Part shown: positions 2,898 through 23,727 of the stretch, piece by piece
How the letters are laid out: each line of letters opens with the position of its first letter
Position numbering within the stretch: position 1 is the first letter of the stretch
Virus record (IMG/VR): IMGVR_UViG_3300030372_003039
Coordinates: 1-24,214 of that record
Origin: a virus
Lineage: Duplodnaviria > Caudoviricetes
Length of the DNA: 24,214 bases
Direction: 5' to 3' (one strand)
Notes under the pieces: model-generated
Told to the model about the DNA's origin: nothing
The model's database searches: none
The model's input: only the letters and a program-made list of their open reading frames with translations
Program-made: the position numbers and the translations under genes

Positions 2898-2932
2898 TGT
2901 AATCTCCTCATTGGTTTATTAATATTCTTTCG

Positions 2933-2996: not shown

Positions 2997-3602
2997 TTAA
3001 TCTGAAAATAACTCTCGGCCTTTATCTGTTATAAAGAATTTACGATCAAAAAGACTTACTTTTTGTTTCATAAAACCTTTTGCATAAAGTCTATGCCGCA
3101 TTTTTCTTAAAGCTTTTTCATATATATCTGCAACTCTCGTACCCGAAATTCCCATATCTTTAGCTATATCTTTAAAACCATCACCATCAATCTGATGCAT
3201 TTTGATAACTTTTAGCTCTCTTGGCGTAAGACCTGATATAGCAACCTTAACGACATCAAGTTGTTCCAGCGCTTTTGCTGGATTGTTGTCAGACATGATT
3301 TGCTTAACCTCATCTAAGCTTGCCTCAAAAGACGCTGTAGATTTTTTGAGCTTTATATCTCTCATATGATTAGGCCAAAGCTGCTCCATGTCTTTTCCCA
3401 AATATGCAGCAATATCAAATGCAAGCTGCGTCCAACCTTTTTTGCCGTAAGGCTTAGTTTTCATTCCAACTAGGCTACCTATATGACTTGGATTCCTACC
3501 AATTTCTCTAGCAAATTCTGCAACGCTATTATGCTTACTTAAAATAGCTTTTAGCAAACGTGCGTTTCTTACCGTTACTTTTACATCTAAATCTTTAGCC
3601 AT
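2997..3602 (-). CDS. Transcription regulator: N-terminal Cro/XRE-like HTH + C-terminal sigma70 region-4-like HTH
   Basis: SVAEFAREIGRNPSHIGSLV (HTH) and LTPRELKVIKMH...FKDIAKDMGISGTRVADIYEKALRKMRH (sigma70_r4 pattern). Confidence 0.75.
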   Translation of the reverse strand: MAKDLDVKVTVRNARLLKAILSKHNSVAEFAREIGRNPSHIGSLVGMKTKPYGKKGWTQLAFDIAAYLGKDMEQLWPNHMRDIKLKKSTASFEASLDEVKQIMSDNNPAKALEQLDVVKVAISGLTPRELKVIKMHQIDGDGFKDIAKDMGISGTRVADIYEKALRKMRHRLYAKGFMKQKVSLFDRKFFITDKGRELFSD

Positions 3603-4177: not shown

Positions 4178-4362
4178 TTACTTACCTTAAAATTCTTGAC
4201 CACATCATCAACCAGCAAATTCATGTGATCTATGCTTTGGCAAATCGCCTCTATGTCACTAAGCCGTACACTGGCTTGGCGAGTGACCGCTTTGAGTCGC
4301 GCTTCCTCTGCAAGATATGCAGCGCTCTCGTAGGCTATTTTATATTCGTCAATTTTTTTCAT
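4174..4362 (-). CDS. Hypothetical protein (start re-assigned to MKKIDEY...)
   Basis: AAGGATAAACCA-ATG gives an SD plus the shared start motif; the longer ORF would overlap the promoter. Confidence 0.7.
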   Translation of the reverse strand: MKKIDEYKIAYESAAYLAEEARLKAVTRQASVRLSDIEAICQSIDHMNLLVDDVVKNFKVSK

Positions 4363-4382
4363 TGGTTTATCCTTTTTATGTG

Positions 4383-4423
4383 TTGACACATATCAATATG
4401 ACTGATAGACCATATCATGTCAA
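4383..4423. promoter_or_regulatory. Overlapping divergent sigma70 promoters with repeated candidate operator
   Basis: + strand TTGACA(4383)-N17-TAGACC with TG extension; - strand TTGACA(4423)-N17-CATATT; CATATCA repeated at 4389 and 4411. Confidence 0.65.
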
Positions 4424-4451
4424 TATAAAAATGCTACAAAGGAAAAATAAA

Positions 4452-4598
4452 ATGCAAAACGAAATCACATACTACGGATTTGAAATCTGGAAAGATTGGG
4501 ATGATAAATGGAAAGTCGCAATCTTAGGTTGGGAGTGGGAGTTTAGCACCTTAGAAGAAGCAAAAAAATTAGTAAAAGAGAACTGGAGAAGGGGGTAG
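4452..4598 (+). CDS. 48-aa Trp-rich hypothetical protein
   Basis: MQNEITYYGFEIWKDWDDKWKVAILGWEWEFSTLEEAKKLVKENWRRG*; SD AAGGA; first gene after rightward promoter. Confidence 0.6.
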   Translation: MQNEITYYGFEIWKDWDDKWKVAILGWEWEFSTLEEAKKLVKENWRRG

Positions 4599-4641
4599 CC
4601 CCTTCCTGGCTCGTAAGCCATTGATTTTAAAGGAGAAAATT

Positions 4642-4815
4642 ATGCAAAAGATAGAAACAAAGCAAGTGCTCTTACGACTGCGAGATGATGTAAACGCAGG
4701 CATGGATGCACTAAAAGCAAGAAATCGCATGAGCAAATCAGTGATAGCTGAGAACGCAATCAGAGAATACTTGGCAAAGCATGATATAAATTTGACAGAA
4801 CCAAAGGCCGACTAA
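4642..4815 (+). CDS. Ribbon-helix-helix (CopG/Arc-like) regulator
   Basis: TKQVLLRL beta-strand, then helices DDVNAGMDALKARN and SKSVIAENAIREYL; SD AAGGAG supports ATG 4642. Confidence 0.75.
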   Translation: MQKIETKQVLLRLRDDVNAGMDALKARNRMSKSVIAENAIREYLAKHDINLTEPKAD

Positions 4816-6066: not shown

Positions 6067-6081
6067 CTTAGGAGTAAACCA

Positions 6082-6741
6082 ATGAAGATATTAGACAACG
6101 GTGATGTAGTATTTAGCAATGTTAAAGCACTATATCCAAAGCTAAACAGAACGTACCACTTTAGCTCAGAGCAGGGCAAAAGCGTGCCTTGTGATGCATT
6201 AGCTGATGGGGCTGCATATACAATAGACTTTGAGCTTGATAAAAAAACCTGCATAGATTTTGATAAGGAATGCACAAGAGTCTACAAAGAAGCAGCAGAT
6301 GCAGACAAAAAGAAAAAGTGGAAAGCTGATCCGACTTACTTGCCCTATAAAGACACAGGTGAAAGCTTCACAGGTAAGGCAAAGCTAAAAGGAGCTTACT
6401 CAGGTGAGACCACAAGGCCACCAGTGCAGAAAGATGCAGAGAGAAATAGCTTGCCTGCTAACTTTGAGCTTACCACGGGCAGTACGGTAAATGTCTGGGG
6501 AAAACTTTTTGCCTACAATACAGGTGCGGTATCTGGCGTTAGCTTTCGCTTAAAAGGTGTACAGGTGCTTGAGCTTGCAGAGCAAGGCGAAGTAGATGAT
6601 CCATTTGCTGCAACAAAAGGATTTAGCGCCAGTAATGCACCAAAAACTAGCGAACTAGCTGCTGATTCAACAGGTAGCTTGCTAGATGGTAAAGATGACC
6701 AGCAAGATGCAAATGATATGGATGACGAAATTCCATTTTAG
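6082..6741 (+). CDS. ssb: Single-stranded DNA-binding protein (T7 gp2.5-like)
   Basis: ALYPKL, GSTVNV, GVSFRLKGVQVLEL motifs and acidic tail DMDDEIPF; lies between exonuclease and primase. Confidence 0.8.
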   Translation: MKILDNGDVVFSNVKALYPKLNRTYHFSSEQGKSVPCDALADGAAYTIDFELDKKTCIDFDKECTRVYKEAADADKKKKWKADPTYLPYKDTGESFTGKAKLKGAYSGETTRPPVQKDAERNSLPANFELTTGSTVNVWGKLFAYNTGAVSGVSFRLKGVQVLELAEQGEVDDPFAATKGFSASNAPKTSELAADSTGSLLDGKDDQQDANDMDDEIPF

Positions 6742-6748
6742 GACTATG

Positions 6749-6788
6749 AAAAAAAATGCCCCAAGCGGAGCAGTTACACGCTTGGGGC
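6749..6788 (-). terminator. Rho-independent terminator on minus strand
   Basis: Perfect 10-bp stem GCCCCAAGCG(6758-6767)/CGCTTGGGGC(6779-6788), followed on the minus strand by A and 8 T. Confidence 0.75.
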
Positions 6789-6833
6789 GAGGTATAAACC
6801 CTTGGTAAACCAATGACATAAAACCGAAGGATT
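6749..6833 (-). ncRNA. Candidate ~85-nt antisense sRNA carrying UGUCAUUGGUUU seed
   Basis: Bounded by a predicted promoter (6840-6868) and intrinsic terminator; no credible ORF; seed is complementary to the AAACCAAUG start motif. Confidence 0.6.
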
Positions 6834-6839
6834 GATGAA

Positions 6840-6868
6840 ATGCTACAAGATAATGGGGCAAATAGCAA
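6840..6868 (-). promoter_or_regulatory. Predicted antisense sigma70 promoter inside the primase 5' end
   Basis: Minus strand TTGCTA(6868-6863)-N17-TAGCAT(6845-6840). Confidence 0.5.
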
Positions 6869-8759
6869 GACCACCACAGCATATTGGGATGAGTGGTCCA
6901 GCAAGATAATAACAGCGCTAGATTTAAAAAAAACAAGTCAACGAGAATGGCATGGTCGTTGCCCAAACTGCGGCGGCAAAGATAGATTCTGGATAACAAA
7001 CTATCACGGCGAGGTTAAGACGAATTGTCGGCAGTGCGAGGATTGGAAAAGTATCAATGAGATTTTGATTAAACAGGGGCTTCTCCCAGAATGGAAACCA
7101 ATGCAAAAAGAAGAAAAAGTAGTCAAGCTACCAGAGCCGCAAGAACTACACCCATATCTCACGCAAAAGCGGATTAAGCTGCATAACGCTAAAATAGATG
7201 AAGGTGACATACATATCACCATCATAAACAACAAAGGGCAGCGTGTAGGCACACAGTTTATTGAACCCAACGGCAAAAAGAAGTTTAGCTTTCAAATGCC
7301 CGTTACAGGCAATTTTGCAGTAGTCGGCGGTAAAATCGAGGACTTTGCCTATTTGTGTGAGGGGTTTGCTACTGCGGCGTCTGTAGCCGAAGCAACGGGC
7401 AAGCCTGCCGTGCACGCATTAAACGCTGGAAATTTAGTAGCGGTATGCAAGGCGCTGCAAGAAGTAAAACCAAATGCAAGGCTTGTCATAGCTGGCGATA
7501 ATGATGATGCAGGGCGTAAAGCCTGCGAAAAAGCTTTTATAGAATGCGGTGTAGAGCATATTTTGCCACCAACCGAAGGGCAAGACTGGAATGACGTATG
7601 GTGCACAAAAGGCGCTGAAGCTACAAAAAAGCTGCTACAACCAGTAAATGTACTTGATGAGGTAATATTTCCAGATCAGGCGCAAGTTCAGCTAGATACA
7701 AAATATATAGTTAAAAACTGGTTTAGCGAAAATACAATCTCACTTATCTATGGGCCAAGCAATGTGGGTAAATCTTTTTTTGTTACACATTGCGCTTGGC
7801 ATATCGCTGCAAATGAACAATGGTTAGGAAGTAGAGTAAATGGTGGTTGCGTGCTCTTGCTTGCTACAGAAGGCGGCTATCTATACCAAAATAGAATTGT
7901 AGCGCTGCAACAAAGCTATCCAGAGCATATAAATGTTAAGCTTGCAGTAAGACCTAGCCCAATAAATCTATATGACGCTGAAGAAGATATAGCAAAAGTA
8001 AAAGCTATTATCAGCGAACTAACAAAAAAGCATGGGCCAGTAAAAATGTTAATCATTGATACACTCGCAAGGGCTACATCTGGCGGTTATGGATTTGATG
8101 AAAATGACAACTCGGCAATGTCTCGATTTGGCGCTAAATTGGACGAACTGAGAGACGAAACAGGCGTTCATGTGTGTATCGTCCATCATTCGGGAAAAGA
8201 TAGCTCTAAGGGCGCTAGGGGTGCGAGTTCGCTTAAAGCGCTGGTGGATACTGAAGTTGAGCTTAGTCAGGACGAAGGGTCAAAAGTCAGGACCGCAAAA
8301 GCGACAAAACAAAGAGATATGGAAACTGGCTCAGAAATTAACTTTATACTGGAAATAGTAGAGCTAGGGCGAGACTCAGATGATGAGCCAGTGACAACTT
8401 GCGTTATCCGAGAGGCAACAAAAGATGAAATGGAGGACGCCGAAAATGAAACTAGGCCGCAAGGAGCAAACCAAAAGCTGTTTAAAAAGTGCTTTATGCA
8501 GCTTAGAGGTGAACGGGTAGGTAGCGCCAATCCGACAGGGGCAGGGTTCCCAGAAGCACGCAAATTCTGGTGCATAAATAAGGACGATTTAGAGGCGCAT
8601 TTTAGCGGCAAAGTGACAACAAAAAACCCTGCTCAAACCTTTGCTCAAACACTCACGAAATTAATCGAAAAAGGCTACTGCGAGATAAATGAGGGCAAAA
8701 TATGGATAATTGCTAAGGAAGGGCGATTAAGCTCAAGTGAGGAGGTTTCACCATTTTAA
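6840..8759 (+). CDS. Primase-helicase (Zn ribbon + TOPRIM + AAA_25/RepA-type helicase)
   Basis: HGRCPNCGGKDRF...CRQC Zn ribbon; LCEGFATA and IAGDNDDAG, DWND TOPRIM; Walker A GPSNVGKS; IIDTLAR; VHHSGKD..KGARGASSL. Confidence 0.93.
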   Translation: MLQDNGANSKTTTAYWDEWSSKIITALDLKKTSQREWHGRCPNCGGKDRFWITNYHGEVKTNCRQCEDWKSINEILIKQGLLPEWKPMQKEEKVVKLPEPQELHPYLTQKRIKLHNAKIDEGDIHITIINNKGQRVGTQFIEPNGKKKFSFQMPVTGNFAVVGGKIEDFAYLCEGFATAASVAEATGKPAVHALNAGNLVAVCKALQEVKPNARLVIAGDNDDAGRKACEKAFIECGVEHILPPTEGQDWNDVWCTKGAEATKKLLQPVNVLDEVIFPDQAQVQLDTKYIVKNWFSENTISLIYGPSNVGKSFFVTHCAWHIAANEQWLGSRVNGGCVLLLATEGGYLYQNRIVALQQSYPEHINVKLAVRPSPINLYDAEEDIAKVKAIISELTKKHGPVKMLIIDTLARATSGGYGFDENDNSAMSRFGAKLDELRDETGVHVCIVHHSGKDSSKGARGASSLKALVDTEVELSQDEGSKVRTAKATKQRDMETGSEINFILEIVELGRDSDDEPVTTCVIREATKDEMEDAENETRPQGANQKLFKKCFMQLRGERVGSANPTGAGFPEARKFWCINKDDLEAHFSGKVTTKNPAQTFAQTLTKLIEKGYCEINEGKIWIIAKEGRLSSSEEVSPF

Positions 8760-8790: not shown

Positions 8791-8910
8791 AAAACCGTGA
8801 GAAACCGTGAGAAACCGTGAGAAAATAGTGAAATCGGTTCATCTTCACGGTTTCACGGTTTTATATATATAAATAAAACCGTGATAATAGTGAACACGTT
8901 AAAACACGTT
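8791..8910. repeat. Iteron array / putative replication origin
   Basis: AAACCGTGA direct at 8792, 8802, 8812, 8876 and inverted at 8845, 8853; 12-bp inverted repeat around an AT-only spacer; AATAGTGA x2; AACACGTT x2. Confidence 0.75.
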
Positions 8911-9188: not shown

Positions 9189-9508
9189 CAAAAACAATAC
9201 GTGCAGCATTGCTTGAAGAAGCAAACAAAATTTTACATGGGCGGCGCTCGGAAGATTATGGAAGCATAGAAAGCAACTTCGGACAAATCGCGGCGCTGTG
9301 GAATATTTATCTTGAGCGACGTAAGAGCATAGAGCCGCACGACGTTTGTGCAATGATGGCATTGCTGAAGATTGCTAGGTTATCGCACAAGCCAGACTTT
9401 GACGGTGCTTTAGACTTGGCAGGTTACGCCGCTTGTTATGCTGAGGCCGCGAAATTAGCGCCACCAGTGAGCCAAACGACAAAAAGCAAGGTTAAGGCTA
9501 GGAAATAA
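9185..9508 (+). CDS. DUF6378-like phage protein
   Basis: LEEANKILHGRRSEDYG...NFGQIAALW...DVCAMMALLKIAR...DLAGYAAC pattern. Confidence 0.75.
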   Translation: MTKTIRAALLEEANKILHGRRSEDYGSIESNFGQIAALWNIYLERRKSIEPHDVCAMMALLKIARLSHKPDFDGALDLAGYAACYAEAAKLAPPVSQTTKSKVKARK

Positions 9509-9533
9509 AAAAAGGCCACTCAGTGAGCGGCCT
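9507..9533 (-). terminator. Rho-independent terminator for the leftward early operon
   Basis: Minus strand AGGCCGCTC-ACT-GAGTGGCCT followed by a T-run, between convergent genes. Confidence 0.7.
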
Positions 9534-9553: not shown

Positions 9554-9754
9554 TTAGTTTACCTTGGCTTGTTCAGCTTGCTTTATTTCTGCTAAGCCTG
9601 CAGCAAACCCTGCTAGTTGTTCTGAAGCATAGCCGTTGAGCGTGGAGTGCATTAGCAAGATAGCTATTTCTTTTCTGCGATACTCTGGCAAGCCTTGCAG
9701 TCTGCAAACTATATCTATCATTTCTTCATTGTCTATTTCGTTTTCCCATGTCAT
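9554..9754 (-). CDS. Hypothetical early protein (start re-assigned to MTWENE...)
   Basis: GGGAGTTAAACCA-ATG; avoids overlap with the upstream gene ending at 9759. Confidence 0.7.
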   Translation of the reverse strand: MTWENEIDNEEMIDIVCRLQGLPEYRRKEIAILLMHSTLNGYASEQLAGFAAGLAEIKQAEQAKVN

Positions 9755-9758
9755 TGGT

Positions 9759-10061
9759 TTAACTCCCTTTTGCTTTAGTTTTACTTTTTGGCGGCCACTG
9801 GATGTCGTATTCTGCAAATCTTTCGAGTTCCCATTCTGTCGGCTCTGTACCAAAAGCATTATCTAATAAATGATAACCACGCTCTAACTTACCAACGTCT
9901 GATACATAAAGGTCATGGCAATCGCATAGCATGCTTATAACATGCTCAAGCGTTTTCTTTAACTCATTGATTACTTCGGCTTGCTTTGCATCCATTGAGT
10001 CAAGCGTCTTAGCGTTTGCAATATATTTTTTTGCTTCGTTTTGAAAATGTTCTTTTGTCAT
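9759..10061 (-). CDS. Hypothetical early protein
   Basis: 100-aa ORF, GAAGGAATCAAACCG-ATG. Confidence 0.75.
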   Translation of the reverse strand: MTKEHFQNEAKKYIANAKTLDSMDAKQAEVINELKKTLEHVISMLCDCHDLYVSDVGKLERGYHLLDNAFGTEPTEWELERFAEYDIQWPPKSKTKAKGS

Positions 10062-10087
10062 CGGTTTGATTCCTTCTTGCTTTGGTT

Positions 10088-10354
10088 TTACTTGTAAATT
10101 GAAATTGAGAGGTAGCTATCATCATTAAAGCTTAAATTATGCTTTTTAGTTCCTACCGTTTCATAGATTGGATAACCGTGTTCATTTTTTACGATACGCC
10201 CATTCTTATGCTTCTTTGGCTGTCGGTCTGGCTCGTTTATCTCAACATGAAGGTAGGTTTCACAATCGTCTAAATATATGCTTCCCTCAAAGGTTTCATT
10301 GAGTTTCTTTTCAACTGCTTCCATTAGGTCGTAGTAAGTAAGTTTAATTTGCAT
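10088..10354 (-). CDS. Hypothetical early protein
   Basis: 88-aa ORF, AAGGAAAAACCA-ATG. Confidence 0.75.
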   Translation of the reverse strand: MQIKLTYYDLMEAVEKKLNETFEGSIYLDDCETYLHVEINEPDRQPKKHKNGRIVKNEHGYPIYETVGTKKHNLSFNDDSYLSISIYK

Positions 10355-10367
10355 TGGTTTTTCCTTA

Positions 10368-10562
10368 TTAATTTTCTAATTCTGTGACAACAGCCGCCGA
10401 CATAAAGCAAAGCCCTATTTCTTTTGGGTCAAGCTTACTAGCTATGTCAAAAGCATATTGTAAGCATTCTTTGGCCTTGTCGTTACTTGGAGCAGTTGCA
10501 GCAAGATGAATTGCTAATGTAAAAGCGTCTGATGCGTTGTTTATCTCTATTTCGTTTGCCAT
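10368..10562 (-). CDS. Hypothetical early protein
   Basis: 64-aa ORF, GGGAGTTAAACCA-ATG. Confidence 0.75.
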   Translation of the reverse strand: MANEIEINNASDAFTLAIHLAATAPSNDKAKECLQYAFDIASKLDPKEIGLCFMSAAVVTELEN

Positions 10563-10566
10563 TGGT

Positions 10567-10671
10567 TTAACTCCCTAAGTATTGAATTAGATATGGTGCA
10601 AGAAATACAGCGCCAGTAAAGAACAAGAATGTGATAAAGCCTAATAGGAATTGGATTTCTGGGGTGTTCAT
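10567..10671 (-). CDS. 34-aa single-TM microprotein
   Basis: MNTPEIQFLLGFITFLFFTGAVFLAPYLIQYLGS*; AAGGTCAAACCA-ATG; ATGA overlap; not in ORF track. Confidence 0.7.
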   Translation of the reverse strand: MNTPEIQFLLGFITFLFFTGAVFLAPYLIQYLGS

Positions 10672-11033
10672 TGGTTTGACCTTTCCATATCTAGGAGAAT
10701 GTTTGCCATAAATGGAAAATAACCATCTAAAACTCTACTGACTAACTTGTCGCTAGGGTTATCGTCTATTGAGCCCATCTCAATTGCTAAATCTATTATT
10801 TCTCCATTGTAACACGGTAGGCCAAACGGAATACCTTGGAGCCATTCAATCAAAGCTTTGTTCTTACCTAACCTAACTATCTCATGACCATATTCATTGC
10901 TGAAACGGTCAAAGATATGTGTAATCTTTTCGGCTCTGGTGGTTAACTTTTGTTCTTCATTATCTCGCTCTATATGGTCAAGAATGAAAGCTTCATAGCG
11001 CGGCTTGTAAACTGTGTGATGTACTTTAGTCAT
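10668..11033 (-). CDS. Hypothetical early protein (start re-assigned to MTKVHH...)
   Basis: AAGGGAAAACCA-ATG; 121 aa. Confidence 0.75.
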   Translation of the reverse strand: MTKVHHTVYKPRYEAFILDHIERDNEEQKLTTRAEKITHIFDRFSNEYGHEIVRLGKNKALIEWLQGIPFGLPCYNGEIIDLAIEMGSIDDNPSDKLVSRVLDGYFPFMANILLDMERSNQ

Positions 11034-11108
11034 TGGTTTTCCCTTTCTTATTATTGTTGTCATGCTTGGTGCATGTAAAGGCATTGCCGCAACAATGCCC
11101 TAGATACA

Positions 11109-11426
11109 TCAAGTATTTATTGCTTCGATTGCTTTAGTTACTTGGTTAGCGTCAACAAACCAATCTGATATGCTGCAATCTAAATTCAATCCTGTTTTCC
11201 TACTATCTCGTCCAGATGACCATTCACATTTACCTGTTAAAGTTGATGCATAATATCGTGAAACAAATTGACCATACTTTGAATGATTATATCTAGCGTC
11301 ATAAAACTCTATTAATGGATCATTGTCATTATGAACTCGACAATCATTTAAGCCATACTTGTCGCCCTCTCTCACTACACGTGCATTGAATGGTATTCCG
11401 TTTGGATTGTTTCCTAAATTAATCAT
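11109..11426 (-). CDS. Hypothetical early protein, first of the leftward operon
   Basis: 105-aa ORF, AAGGGGAAACCAA-ATG, just downstream of a predicted promoter. Confidence 0.75.
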   Translation of the reverse strand: MINLGNNPNGIPFNARVVREGDKYGLNDCRVHNDNDPLIEFYDARYNHSKYGQFVSRYYASTLTGKCEWSSGRDSRKTGLNLDCSISDWFVDANQVTKAIEAINT

Positions 11427-11464
11427 TTGGTTTCCCCTTTGTTTTTCTTCATGTGTATATCATT

Positions 11465-11493: not shown

Positions 11494-11849
11494 AAAATCA
11501 ATAACTTATAAAAAAGATTTATTGAGAAAAGCTACCAACCACACACCAAAGCACAAGCCGCGCACGGGCACGCGCGATTACACTTAAGTAAAACTTAAGT
11601 CAAGCTTATTGTTTTTCATTGTTCATACTTTGCCAAACTTAGTACAATCAAGAACCGTAATAACGGCATTATGGCAAAGTGTTAACATAATACATATTAT
11701 ACGAAATATCATTCTGATATTATCTGCTAGGATTTGCATAGGTTTGGTCTGTATTGTTTTAAGTCTGGCAAAGTATAAACATTGGTGTGCAATGGTATAC
11801 AATTGCCCCCCCGTCTAGCCCCCACCCCTACCCCTATTATTATTATACA

Positions 11850-23349: not shown

Positions 23350-23727
23350 ATGAATGATATGTCACACATAAGCGAGATAGACAGATGCCAGTCTTGGATA
23401 GAGGCTGCGCTTGAGTATTCGGGTGGCACGCACAGTCTTTCTGATGTGATTGAGGGCATTACTTCTGGCAAGATGCAGTTGTGGCCTGCGCCAAAGGGGT
23501 GCATAGTGACAGAAATTGTGGTATATCCTAGAAAAAAGATGTTAAATGTGTTTTTAGGTGGTGGTGAGCTAGATCAGCTTTTGGATATGCACAAAGATGT
23601 GATAGCATGGTCTAAAGCACAAGGATGCGAAGCTGTAACGATAACAGGACGTTTTGGATGGAAAAAACCTTTAAAAGCACACGGTTGGAAACCAATGCAT
23701 GCGTCATTTATTAAGGAGATTGGATAA
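23350..23727 (+). CDS. GNAT-like morphogenesis protein (P22 gp14/T7 gp13 position)
   Basis: AQGCEAVTITGRFGWKK motif; lies between nozzle and ejection proteins. Confidence 0.6.
   Translation: MNDMSHISEIDRCQSWIEAALEYSGGTHSLSDVIEGITSGKMQLWPAPKGCIVTEIVVYPRKKMLNVFLGGGELDQLLDMHKDVIAWSKAQGCEAVTITGRFGWKKPLKAHGWKPMHASFIKEIG

Follow-up and report, generated by a model that had tools for sequence, protein, structure and literature searches.

A predicted antisense RNA opposite a phage primase leader, with a candidate seed for a start-codon tag of early and replication genes

The window analysed here is the whole 24,214-nucleotide stretch of a 24-kb virus record, which carries genes for lysis, terminase and virion proteins, together with a replication block and a leftward cluster of small genes of unknown function. 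The replication block consists of RusA-like, exonuclease VIII, gp2.5-like ssb and primase-helicase genes. Among cultured phages, pelagic Roseobacter phages of the CRP-822 type have the closest replication genes (30–51% identity), which suggests a marine Roseobacter-type host for the window phage. We only infer this host, because the replication genes resemble the CRP-822 type but the window terminase is nearer to phages other than that type. The genome collection gave no informative host clue: apart from two binned contigs of phages, its matches are RepA-like genes that are only distantly related.

Several other features surround the replication genes. Directly behind the primase gene, at 8791-8884, a 13-nt repeat is present four times together with inverted copies and an AT-rich palindrome, and this region is likely the replication origin. 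A GC-rich hairpin (11558-11577) is located upstream of the small terminase gene and is also found in a distant second lineage (L163, L175, L178, L180); with the long inverted repeats at 11617-11784 it forms a possible genome end or packaging site. Upstream of a ribbon-helix-helix gene, the divergent gene pair at 4362-4642 has TTGACA boxes on opposite strands together with a direct repeat of 11 nt, and is a candidate transcription switch. A 201-aa protein with a sigma-70 region 4 domain is encoded on the minus strand at 2997-3602, and among 23 loci tested it is present only in the window and L001.

The gap between ssb and primase contains, on the minus strand, the elements of a small RNA gene (Table 1). 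A sequence-only reading of this stretch had described promoter-like hexamers with a spacing of 17, a 10-bp stem and eight T, and all of them are found at the places it gave. In the predicted RNA a 5' stem with the seed loop comes first and the terminator follows. The whole seed is inside the predicted loop, which is closed by a 10-pair 5' stem. The fold z-score is -4.66, to which the terminator contributes most. On the plus side of the terminator hairpin a T tract is absent. Since the leftward cluster has a terminator-like site of its own, the hairpin is unneeded there and has no other evident customer, as the earlier reading had held. By itself, the window promoter is unremarkable: it lies under the scan threshold, and 29 promoter-like sites are found where 29.2 are expected. 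Thus, the support for this promoter is comparative. A search of the window with Rfam covariance models gave a single chance match elsewhere (E 0.93) and no family, including C4 and the repABC ctRNA; L160, L170 and L141 gave no match at gathering score. The expression data comprise seven runs, all of assembled contigs in which strand and RNA ends are unreadable, with a fraction of at most 0.10 of the words present. A contig end at 6758 was considered as the RNA end and given no weight, since other contigs cross that position.

Table 1. Features of the predicted antisense unit, its neighbours and the start tags of the window; pairing is given in nucleotides with the seed.
Feature	Position	Strand	Remarks
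gp2.5-like ssb gene	6082-6741	+	
Primase-helicase gene (Zn ribbon, Toprim, AAA_25)	6840..8759	+	cis target
Predicted antisense small RNA, 85 nt	6749..6833	-	5' end presumed, 7 nt behind -10 box
-35-like hexamer TTGCTA, within primase codons 8-10	6863..6868	-	TTGC invariant in 14/14 distinct 29-mers, 46 loci
-10-like hexamer TAGCAT (TAnCAT), overlaps primase start codon	6840..6845	-	17-nt spacer fixed in 46/64 loci
Predicted 5' stem-loop; 5' arm antisense to primase Shine-Dalgarno	6797..6833	-	from fold
Seed, predicted 16-nt loop with complement of AAACCAATGACAT	6807..6822	-	10-nt core invariant, 11/11 aligned close relatives
Intrinsic-terminator-like hairpin (10 bp) and U8	6749..6788	-	stem 6788-6779/6767-6758, eight T 6756-6749
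Terminator-like site closing leftward gene cluster	9503..9533	-	
Tag just upstream of Shine-Dalgarno, 70-aa gene starting 2897	2909..2917	-	pairing 11
Tag at 62-aa gene start (4362)	4360..4368	-	pairing 11
Tag at ssb start	6076..6084	+	pairing 12
Tag at start 9754, best predicted target	9752..9760	-	pairing 14 (18 with G:U)
Tag, A>G variant, start 10061	10059..10067	-	pairing 12 with G:U
Tag at start 10354	10352..10360	-	pairing 9
Tag at start 10562	10560..10568	-	pairing 13 with G:U
Tag at start 10671 (34-aa ORF)	10669..10677	-	pairing 10
Tag at start 11033	11031..11039	-	pairing 11
Tag with one extra base, start 11426	11424..11433	-	pairing 7 plus bulge; weak predicted target

The comparison covers 64 loci, which are those from a homologue search plus the window, each including the primase start. 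The pattern TTG-N3-N17-TAnCAT on the minus strand, with its -10 box on the primase ATG, is present in 46 of them and in 1 of 951 control starts. These 46 loci represent 14 distinct sequences, in which the spacers are free to vary. The pattern is missing from the 18 other loci (three lineages), and it is found also in eight loci retrieved through the exonuclease and in L170. The 5' arm of the predicted RNA is antisense to the primase Shine-Dalgarno (SD) sequence, as the sequence-only reading had described. In 13 of 27 rows, some of which are the same contig twice, the primase is replaced after codon 5 by an unrelated 177-aa ORF, with unchanged spacing of the TTG box. The box is kept despite this swap, thus the constraint acts on the DNA and not on primase residues. 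In promoter-bearing lineages an A tract and a GC hairpin are observed with unrelated stem sequences, and the terminator stem of L118 has a two-sided change from C-G to G-C. The cultured phages CRP-701 and CRP-831 also have an A tract and a hairpin ahead of the primase, and by eye no common start tag is seen in these two. A hairpin-pattern scan returned 13 matches, six of them by chance; the matches in L150 and L151 were by chance. An antisense unit with its own predicted promoter and terminator, opposite a replication-gene leader and over the ribosome site as in ctRNAs, is seen in 46/64 loci. From this comparison we are highly confident that the unit in the ssb-primase gap is real and strongly conserved.

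The surroundings of the unit are variable. In L090 (8174-10923) and loci like it, the 177-aa orphan ORF is joined to the antisense unit, and the AAA_25 helicase behind this ORF has 739 aa and a different N-terminus; here the replication module has been exchanged and the RNA unit retained. Genes are repeatedly inserted between ssb and primase (L019, L021, L036, L050, L055, L062; L157, L158, L161; L011-type loci). In the L019 group both the promoter pattern and the terminator are gone, and in the other insertion loci the unit stays with the primase. In the binned contig L141 (6473-8390) the primase frame is broken after codon 285, by either an assembly error or a frameshift.

The motif AAACC(A/G)ATG, which we call the tag, has 12 matches in the window, against a shuffled mean of 0.50, and none of 100 shuffles reaches 12. 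Nine matches are at starts and one is the RNA's own copy. The two others are located inside the primase (7095-7103), where the copy is kept in close relatives as protein codons, and inside a late gene (23689-23697), 30 nt upstream of the late start 23727. The tag is found at 9/20 early or replication starts versus 0/28 late starts (P=1e-4), the two classes having been assigned in this analysis, partly by gene position. It is non-palindromic, and its orientation is always the sense of its gene. Scanning the sequence collection for the tag gave 20 stretches, five of them of the window's lineage and the others unrelated contigs without tag clusters.

All ten pairing lengths listed in the sequence-only reading are correct on recount. 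The seed is unpaired in the predicted fold, and several unlinked mRNAs have start regions complementary to it, as would be expected for a multi-target sRNA. Raw duplex energies for the first 45 nt do not separate the targets (one late start reaches -32.7), and an accessibility-corrected ranking of 48 starts was used instead. This ranking is partly circular, because the seed had been picked from the motif. The start sites had been expected to rank top genome-wide. Tag genes do fill ranks 1-7 and start 10354 is ninth, but 2897 and 11426 are twelfth and thirteenth, behind two late genes, with weak predicted net binding (-6.4 and -5.6 kcal/mol). Deviations from the tag within families are G:U-compatible in 8/8 and 7/9 cases. 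The earlier use of A-to-G deviations as evidence for G:U pairing does not carry far, since C>T is a common change and any transition in AAACCA can be accommodated by wobble pairing.

Four lineages carry four different tags, and each word is present in the RNA of its own lineage and in none of the other three. In the window lineage, AAACCA-ATG begins 28 unrelated gene families (29 minus one internal Met), counted from 36 families within one mismatch of the tag. In the second lineage (L160-L165, primase 51% identity) the tag is GAAAGGCTAA, with sites at the exonuclease, ssb and the leftward cluster and on 25 unrelated gene families (one non-start removed). The second-lineage genome G004 has 15 exact copies of GAAAGGCTAA; 14 of them mark starts, and the remaining one is in the RNA loop, which is closed by an 8-bp stem. 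An ArdC-like anti-restriction gene (L160:15469-16386, minus strand) is a tagged early gene of this lineage. Lineage L170 has TAGACAAA at five start regions, including that of ssb, plus a copy in the RNA. In lineage L141, the predicted loop and five start regions contain AAAACAAA. A primase tree of 15 rows, in which L142 stands in for L141 and L158 for L157, separates the four tag lineages. A cross table of 9-mers is block-diagonal for the first two lineages: the window RNA matches 7/34 of its own starts and 0/33, 2/22 and 0/34 second-lineage starts, and the L164 RNA matches 15/34 of its own starts and 0/34 window starts. The RNA of L157 (12077-12137), L159 and L161 has an extra hairpin and contains parts of both the window tag and the second-lineage tag. 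This is a possible intermediate seed, and few targets are apparent in the L157 record.

The strength of these matches differs between lineages. Shuffles hold the four words in 155, 415, 139 and 525 of 20000 cases (0.8, 2.1, 0.7 and 2.6%), and the A-rich matches of L141 and L170 are weak alone (64 and 69 of 2000 shuffles at k=9). When tested blind, 9/16 loci have their top start-region 8-mer in their own RNA, two of them via a tie. The seven other loci are without a match; their top word has at most four copies in all seven, and some of them may lack the early cluster. An 11-nt motif is found at three starts of L008 and a copy in its RNA is absent, although this RNA matches 3/17 starts at k=9 (8 of 2000 shuffles). 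L026, L065, L072 and L073 have a 9-nt motif at one to three starts and no copy in their RNA. The sequence-only reading had set co-variation of seed and start motif in relatives as a test, and named a motif kept without its seed as a refuting observation. Co-variation holds for part of the family: four lineages are matched with four tags, but the seven loci of the blind test and the motifs of L008 and of L026/L065/L072/L073 are not. Likewise, for the proposed single sRNA with an early/replication regulon, the antisense RNA gene and the pairing with multiple starts are supported by comparison, but the trans seed is found in some lineages only. Cis control of the primase ribosome site appears to be the widely conserved role. 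Pairing of the predicted RNA with many start sites is well supported by promoter conservation, the terminator and the four-lineage co-variation.

We consider it probable that this replication-gene antisense RNA, having likely gained a trans seed, represses translation of the tagged early and replication genes. An unlikely alternative is that the RNA acts in cis only, on the primase or the gene replacing it, while the tag is a recombination joint of gene cassettes and the leader copy a duplicated start region. The phage indeed encodes exonuclease VIII and a gp2.5-like annealing protein, promoter and terminator persist in lineages without a matching tag, and the L073 leader has 15 nt in common with the start region of the gene inserted just upstream. 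Close relatives differ in early genes yet share start regions, and the PeSL cassettes of T4-type phages do likewise (sections cited of PMC2839356 and PMC4122927), having a repeated regulatory sequence ahead of variable early genes. These are promoter-terminator cassettes for gene shuffling, however, while the window tag, which has an antisense copy, spans 8-14 nt at the start codon. A relic should decay, yet besides the 10-nt core (Table 1) a 25-nt stretch is invariant in 5/5 relatives, while ssb identity drops to 58%. Furthermore, the seed is in the predicted loop in three of four lineages, the core genes ssb and exonuclease are tagged, and some tag copies are located upstream of the SD.

The tag could also be the site for a phage protein, either a RegA-like translational repressor or a DNA operator, with the leader copy as one more site in a loop of the plus-strand mRNA and the antisense unit controlling only the primase. 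One protein binding all copies would also give leader-tag co-variation, and three of the four tagged lineages have homologues of the ribbon-helix-helix gene (4642-4815). We regard this as improbable. The four tags share little sequence, thus the protein would need a new specificity each time, and the non-palindromic tag in constant gene sense argues in the same direction, as do, weakly, the 15/17 G:U-compatible deviations. The 62-aa candidate has no informative look-alike. The folding of the two strands is divided: among 24 loci the minus strand folds better in 15 and the plus strand as well or better in 9, with 41 versus 25 G:U pairs. Variants of the 5' stem are G:U pairs on the minus strand; L107, L120, L163, L165, L141 and L060 lose the seed stem on the plus strand. 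Four distinct sequences of the second lineage keep the 8-pair seed stem completely paired; among them two G-C pairs are changed on one side to G-U, and a two-sided change is absent. Both cassette recombination and a protein ligand are rivals of the RNA model, and could coexist. In leader-peptide plasmid systems an antisense RNA controls an upstream ORF. That the tag is a translation enhancer and its leader copy starts a small upstream ORF, coupled to the primase and controlled by the antisense RNA, is very improbable here, even though in the second lineage SD, spacer and ATG of the leader copy are in the register of real starts. The ten distinct window-lineage leaders are divided into three open in frame, three in frame with a stop and four out of frame, and an SD precedes none of their copies; the second-lineage reading gives 6 aa, 22 aa or is in frame. 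An upstream ORF thus fails on frame and SD, and an enhancer for host ribosomes would hardly change wholly between lineages.

A comparison of the RNA that we favour, with a cis target and a trans seed, with described RNAs shows partial likeness. The repABC ctRNA of alphaproteobacterial plasmids is likewise a small antisense RNA just upstream of a replication gene whose expression it lowers (PMC3155836). It acts on one mRNA, RepC, via terminator formation, and the sections cited do not describe a tag on other genes, whereas the predicted target here is a phage primase. The repABC RNA lies between repB and repC, unlike the present one, whose flanks are a gp2.5-like ssb and a primase-helicase. FopS and GibS of Bacteroides thetaiotaomicron likewise have a single-stranded seed and an intrinsic terminator, and bind beside several start codons to block translation (PMC11697453). 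However, they are multicopy host RNAs with one conserved seed for host transporter genes, with one phage copy mentioned; the sections cited describe neither a phage that regulates its own genes in this way nor a change of seed and tag from lineage to lineage. The FopS structure is deposited in Rfam (PMC11697453), where the window RNA has no match, which argues against membership of the FopS family. By analogy, the cis action of the RNA would resemble that of the repABC ctRNA and its trans action that of FopS, and the RNA appears to be a member of neither. P1 C4 and P4 CI are phage antisense RNAs acting on phage mRNA. P22 Sar, lambda OOP, aQ and BTP1 STnc6030 are also phage-made RNAs that pair with phage mRNA, often at the ribosome site, and time development (PMC12197685). 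Each of them has one gene or transcript as target, mostly in temperate phages, and targeting of 10-15 sites by a tag is absent from the sections cited of this review, which deals with single-target antisense RNAs and host-targeting sRNAs. Our literature search, by title or start of abstract and with subscription papers mostly outside its scope, found no phage RNA aimed at many of its own start sites. The RNA thus has neither an Rfam match nor a counterpart in the literature searched.

The start-associated sequence (SAS) of cluster K mycobacteriophages resembles the tag in placement. The SAS is an asymmetric ribosome-site motif at 13-19 non-structural genes that exceeds the need of SD pairing (PMC3203893, PMC11373665, PMC12699233), and the early, gene-oriented placement of the window tag is similar. 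Its function was left open in these papers, with an RNA or a protein as possible ligand, and in the sections cited it is called ill-defined (PMC11373665) and unverified (PMC12699233). The SAS has another sequence and host, the window-family tags being words different from its 13-bp consensus, and a partner RNA is not described in these sections, whereas the window phage has a co-varying candidate partner with promoter and terminator. One reverse-oriented SAS was reported in four cluster K genomes (Pope et al., PMC3203893). The 31.6-kb stretch of Adephagia (JF704105) that was searched has 17 SAS matches, of which the reverse SAS alone is on the minus strand. It is located in the gene 92-93 gap (L181:30660-30710) and, on the plus strand, forms the unpaired loop of a 20-bp predicted hairpin. 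Late transcription appears to start in this gap, and gp39, the product of an SAS gene, is listed as Hfq-like by structure (PMC11373665). The gap region is present in 155 records. Among eight cluster K phages examined (L181-L188), three have the full anti-SAS loop, three a related but different pyrimidine-rich loop and two none. A universal explanation of the SAS by this hairpin loop is unsupported, as the full match is found in only 3/8.

In the proposed mechanism, the minus strand of the ssb-primase gap likely yields the 85-nt RNA. The boxes of the window have what we take to be a sigma-70 shape, and host sigma-70 would transcribe the RNA from early on. The predicted partners of the RNA are the primase ribosome site in cis and, for its exposed loop, the start-codon tag of about ten early and replication genes. 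Pairing would begin with the loop and extend over the ribosome site, so that initiation is blocked. Since the promoter looks host-read, a delayed brake would be the simplest circuit: as the RNA accumulates, an early burst of host-takeover proteins, ssb and primase would be turned down, and untagged late genes would escape. The tagged ArdC anti-restriction protein of the second lineage fits a task right after entry. The cis role looks older because the unit is kept in lineages without the tag. The trans seed may have been gained or re-tuned lineage by lineage, and new early genes could join the regulon by carrying the tag. A carrier or immunity role, the other option of the sequence-only reading, is less likely, since a tyrosine integrase is absent from 5/5 near-complete relatives (the window itself is a fragment). 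An integrase is also missing from nearly every phage of the CRP-822 type, whose description, in the sections cited, nowhere mentions 'sRNA', 'antisense' or 'promoter' (PMC12629253). The tag might possibly provide tag-specific superinfection exclusion in lytic growth.

Proteins are the usual explanation for the switch from early to late genes in phages. We put forward tentatively, and with slightly more doubt than belief, an RNA master switch, in which one small RNA and a tag on all early starts make up an address code, private and re-writable, by which the early programme and a superinfecting phage with the same tag are silenced, and which also explains start motifs like the cluster K SAS. If this is true, it would offer a direct test of the function of start-associated sequences, open since 2011 according to the sections cited (PMC3203893). 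Regulon membership would be readable from genomes, which would hold a natural set of orthogonal RNA-target pairs. An RNA that dampens 10-15 scattered early genes by a shared tag would be a new layer of phage timing, in which RNA and tag are rewritten together across lineages and may provide superinfection exclusion in abundant marine phages.
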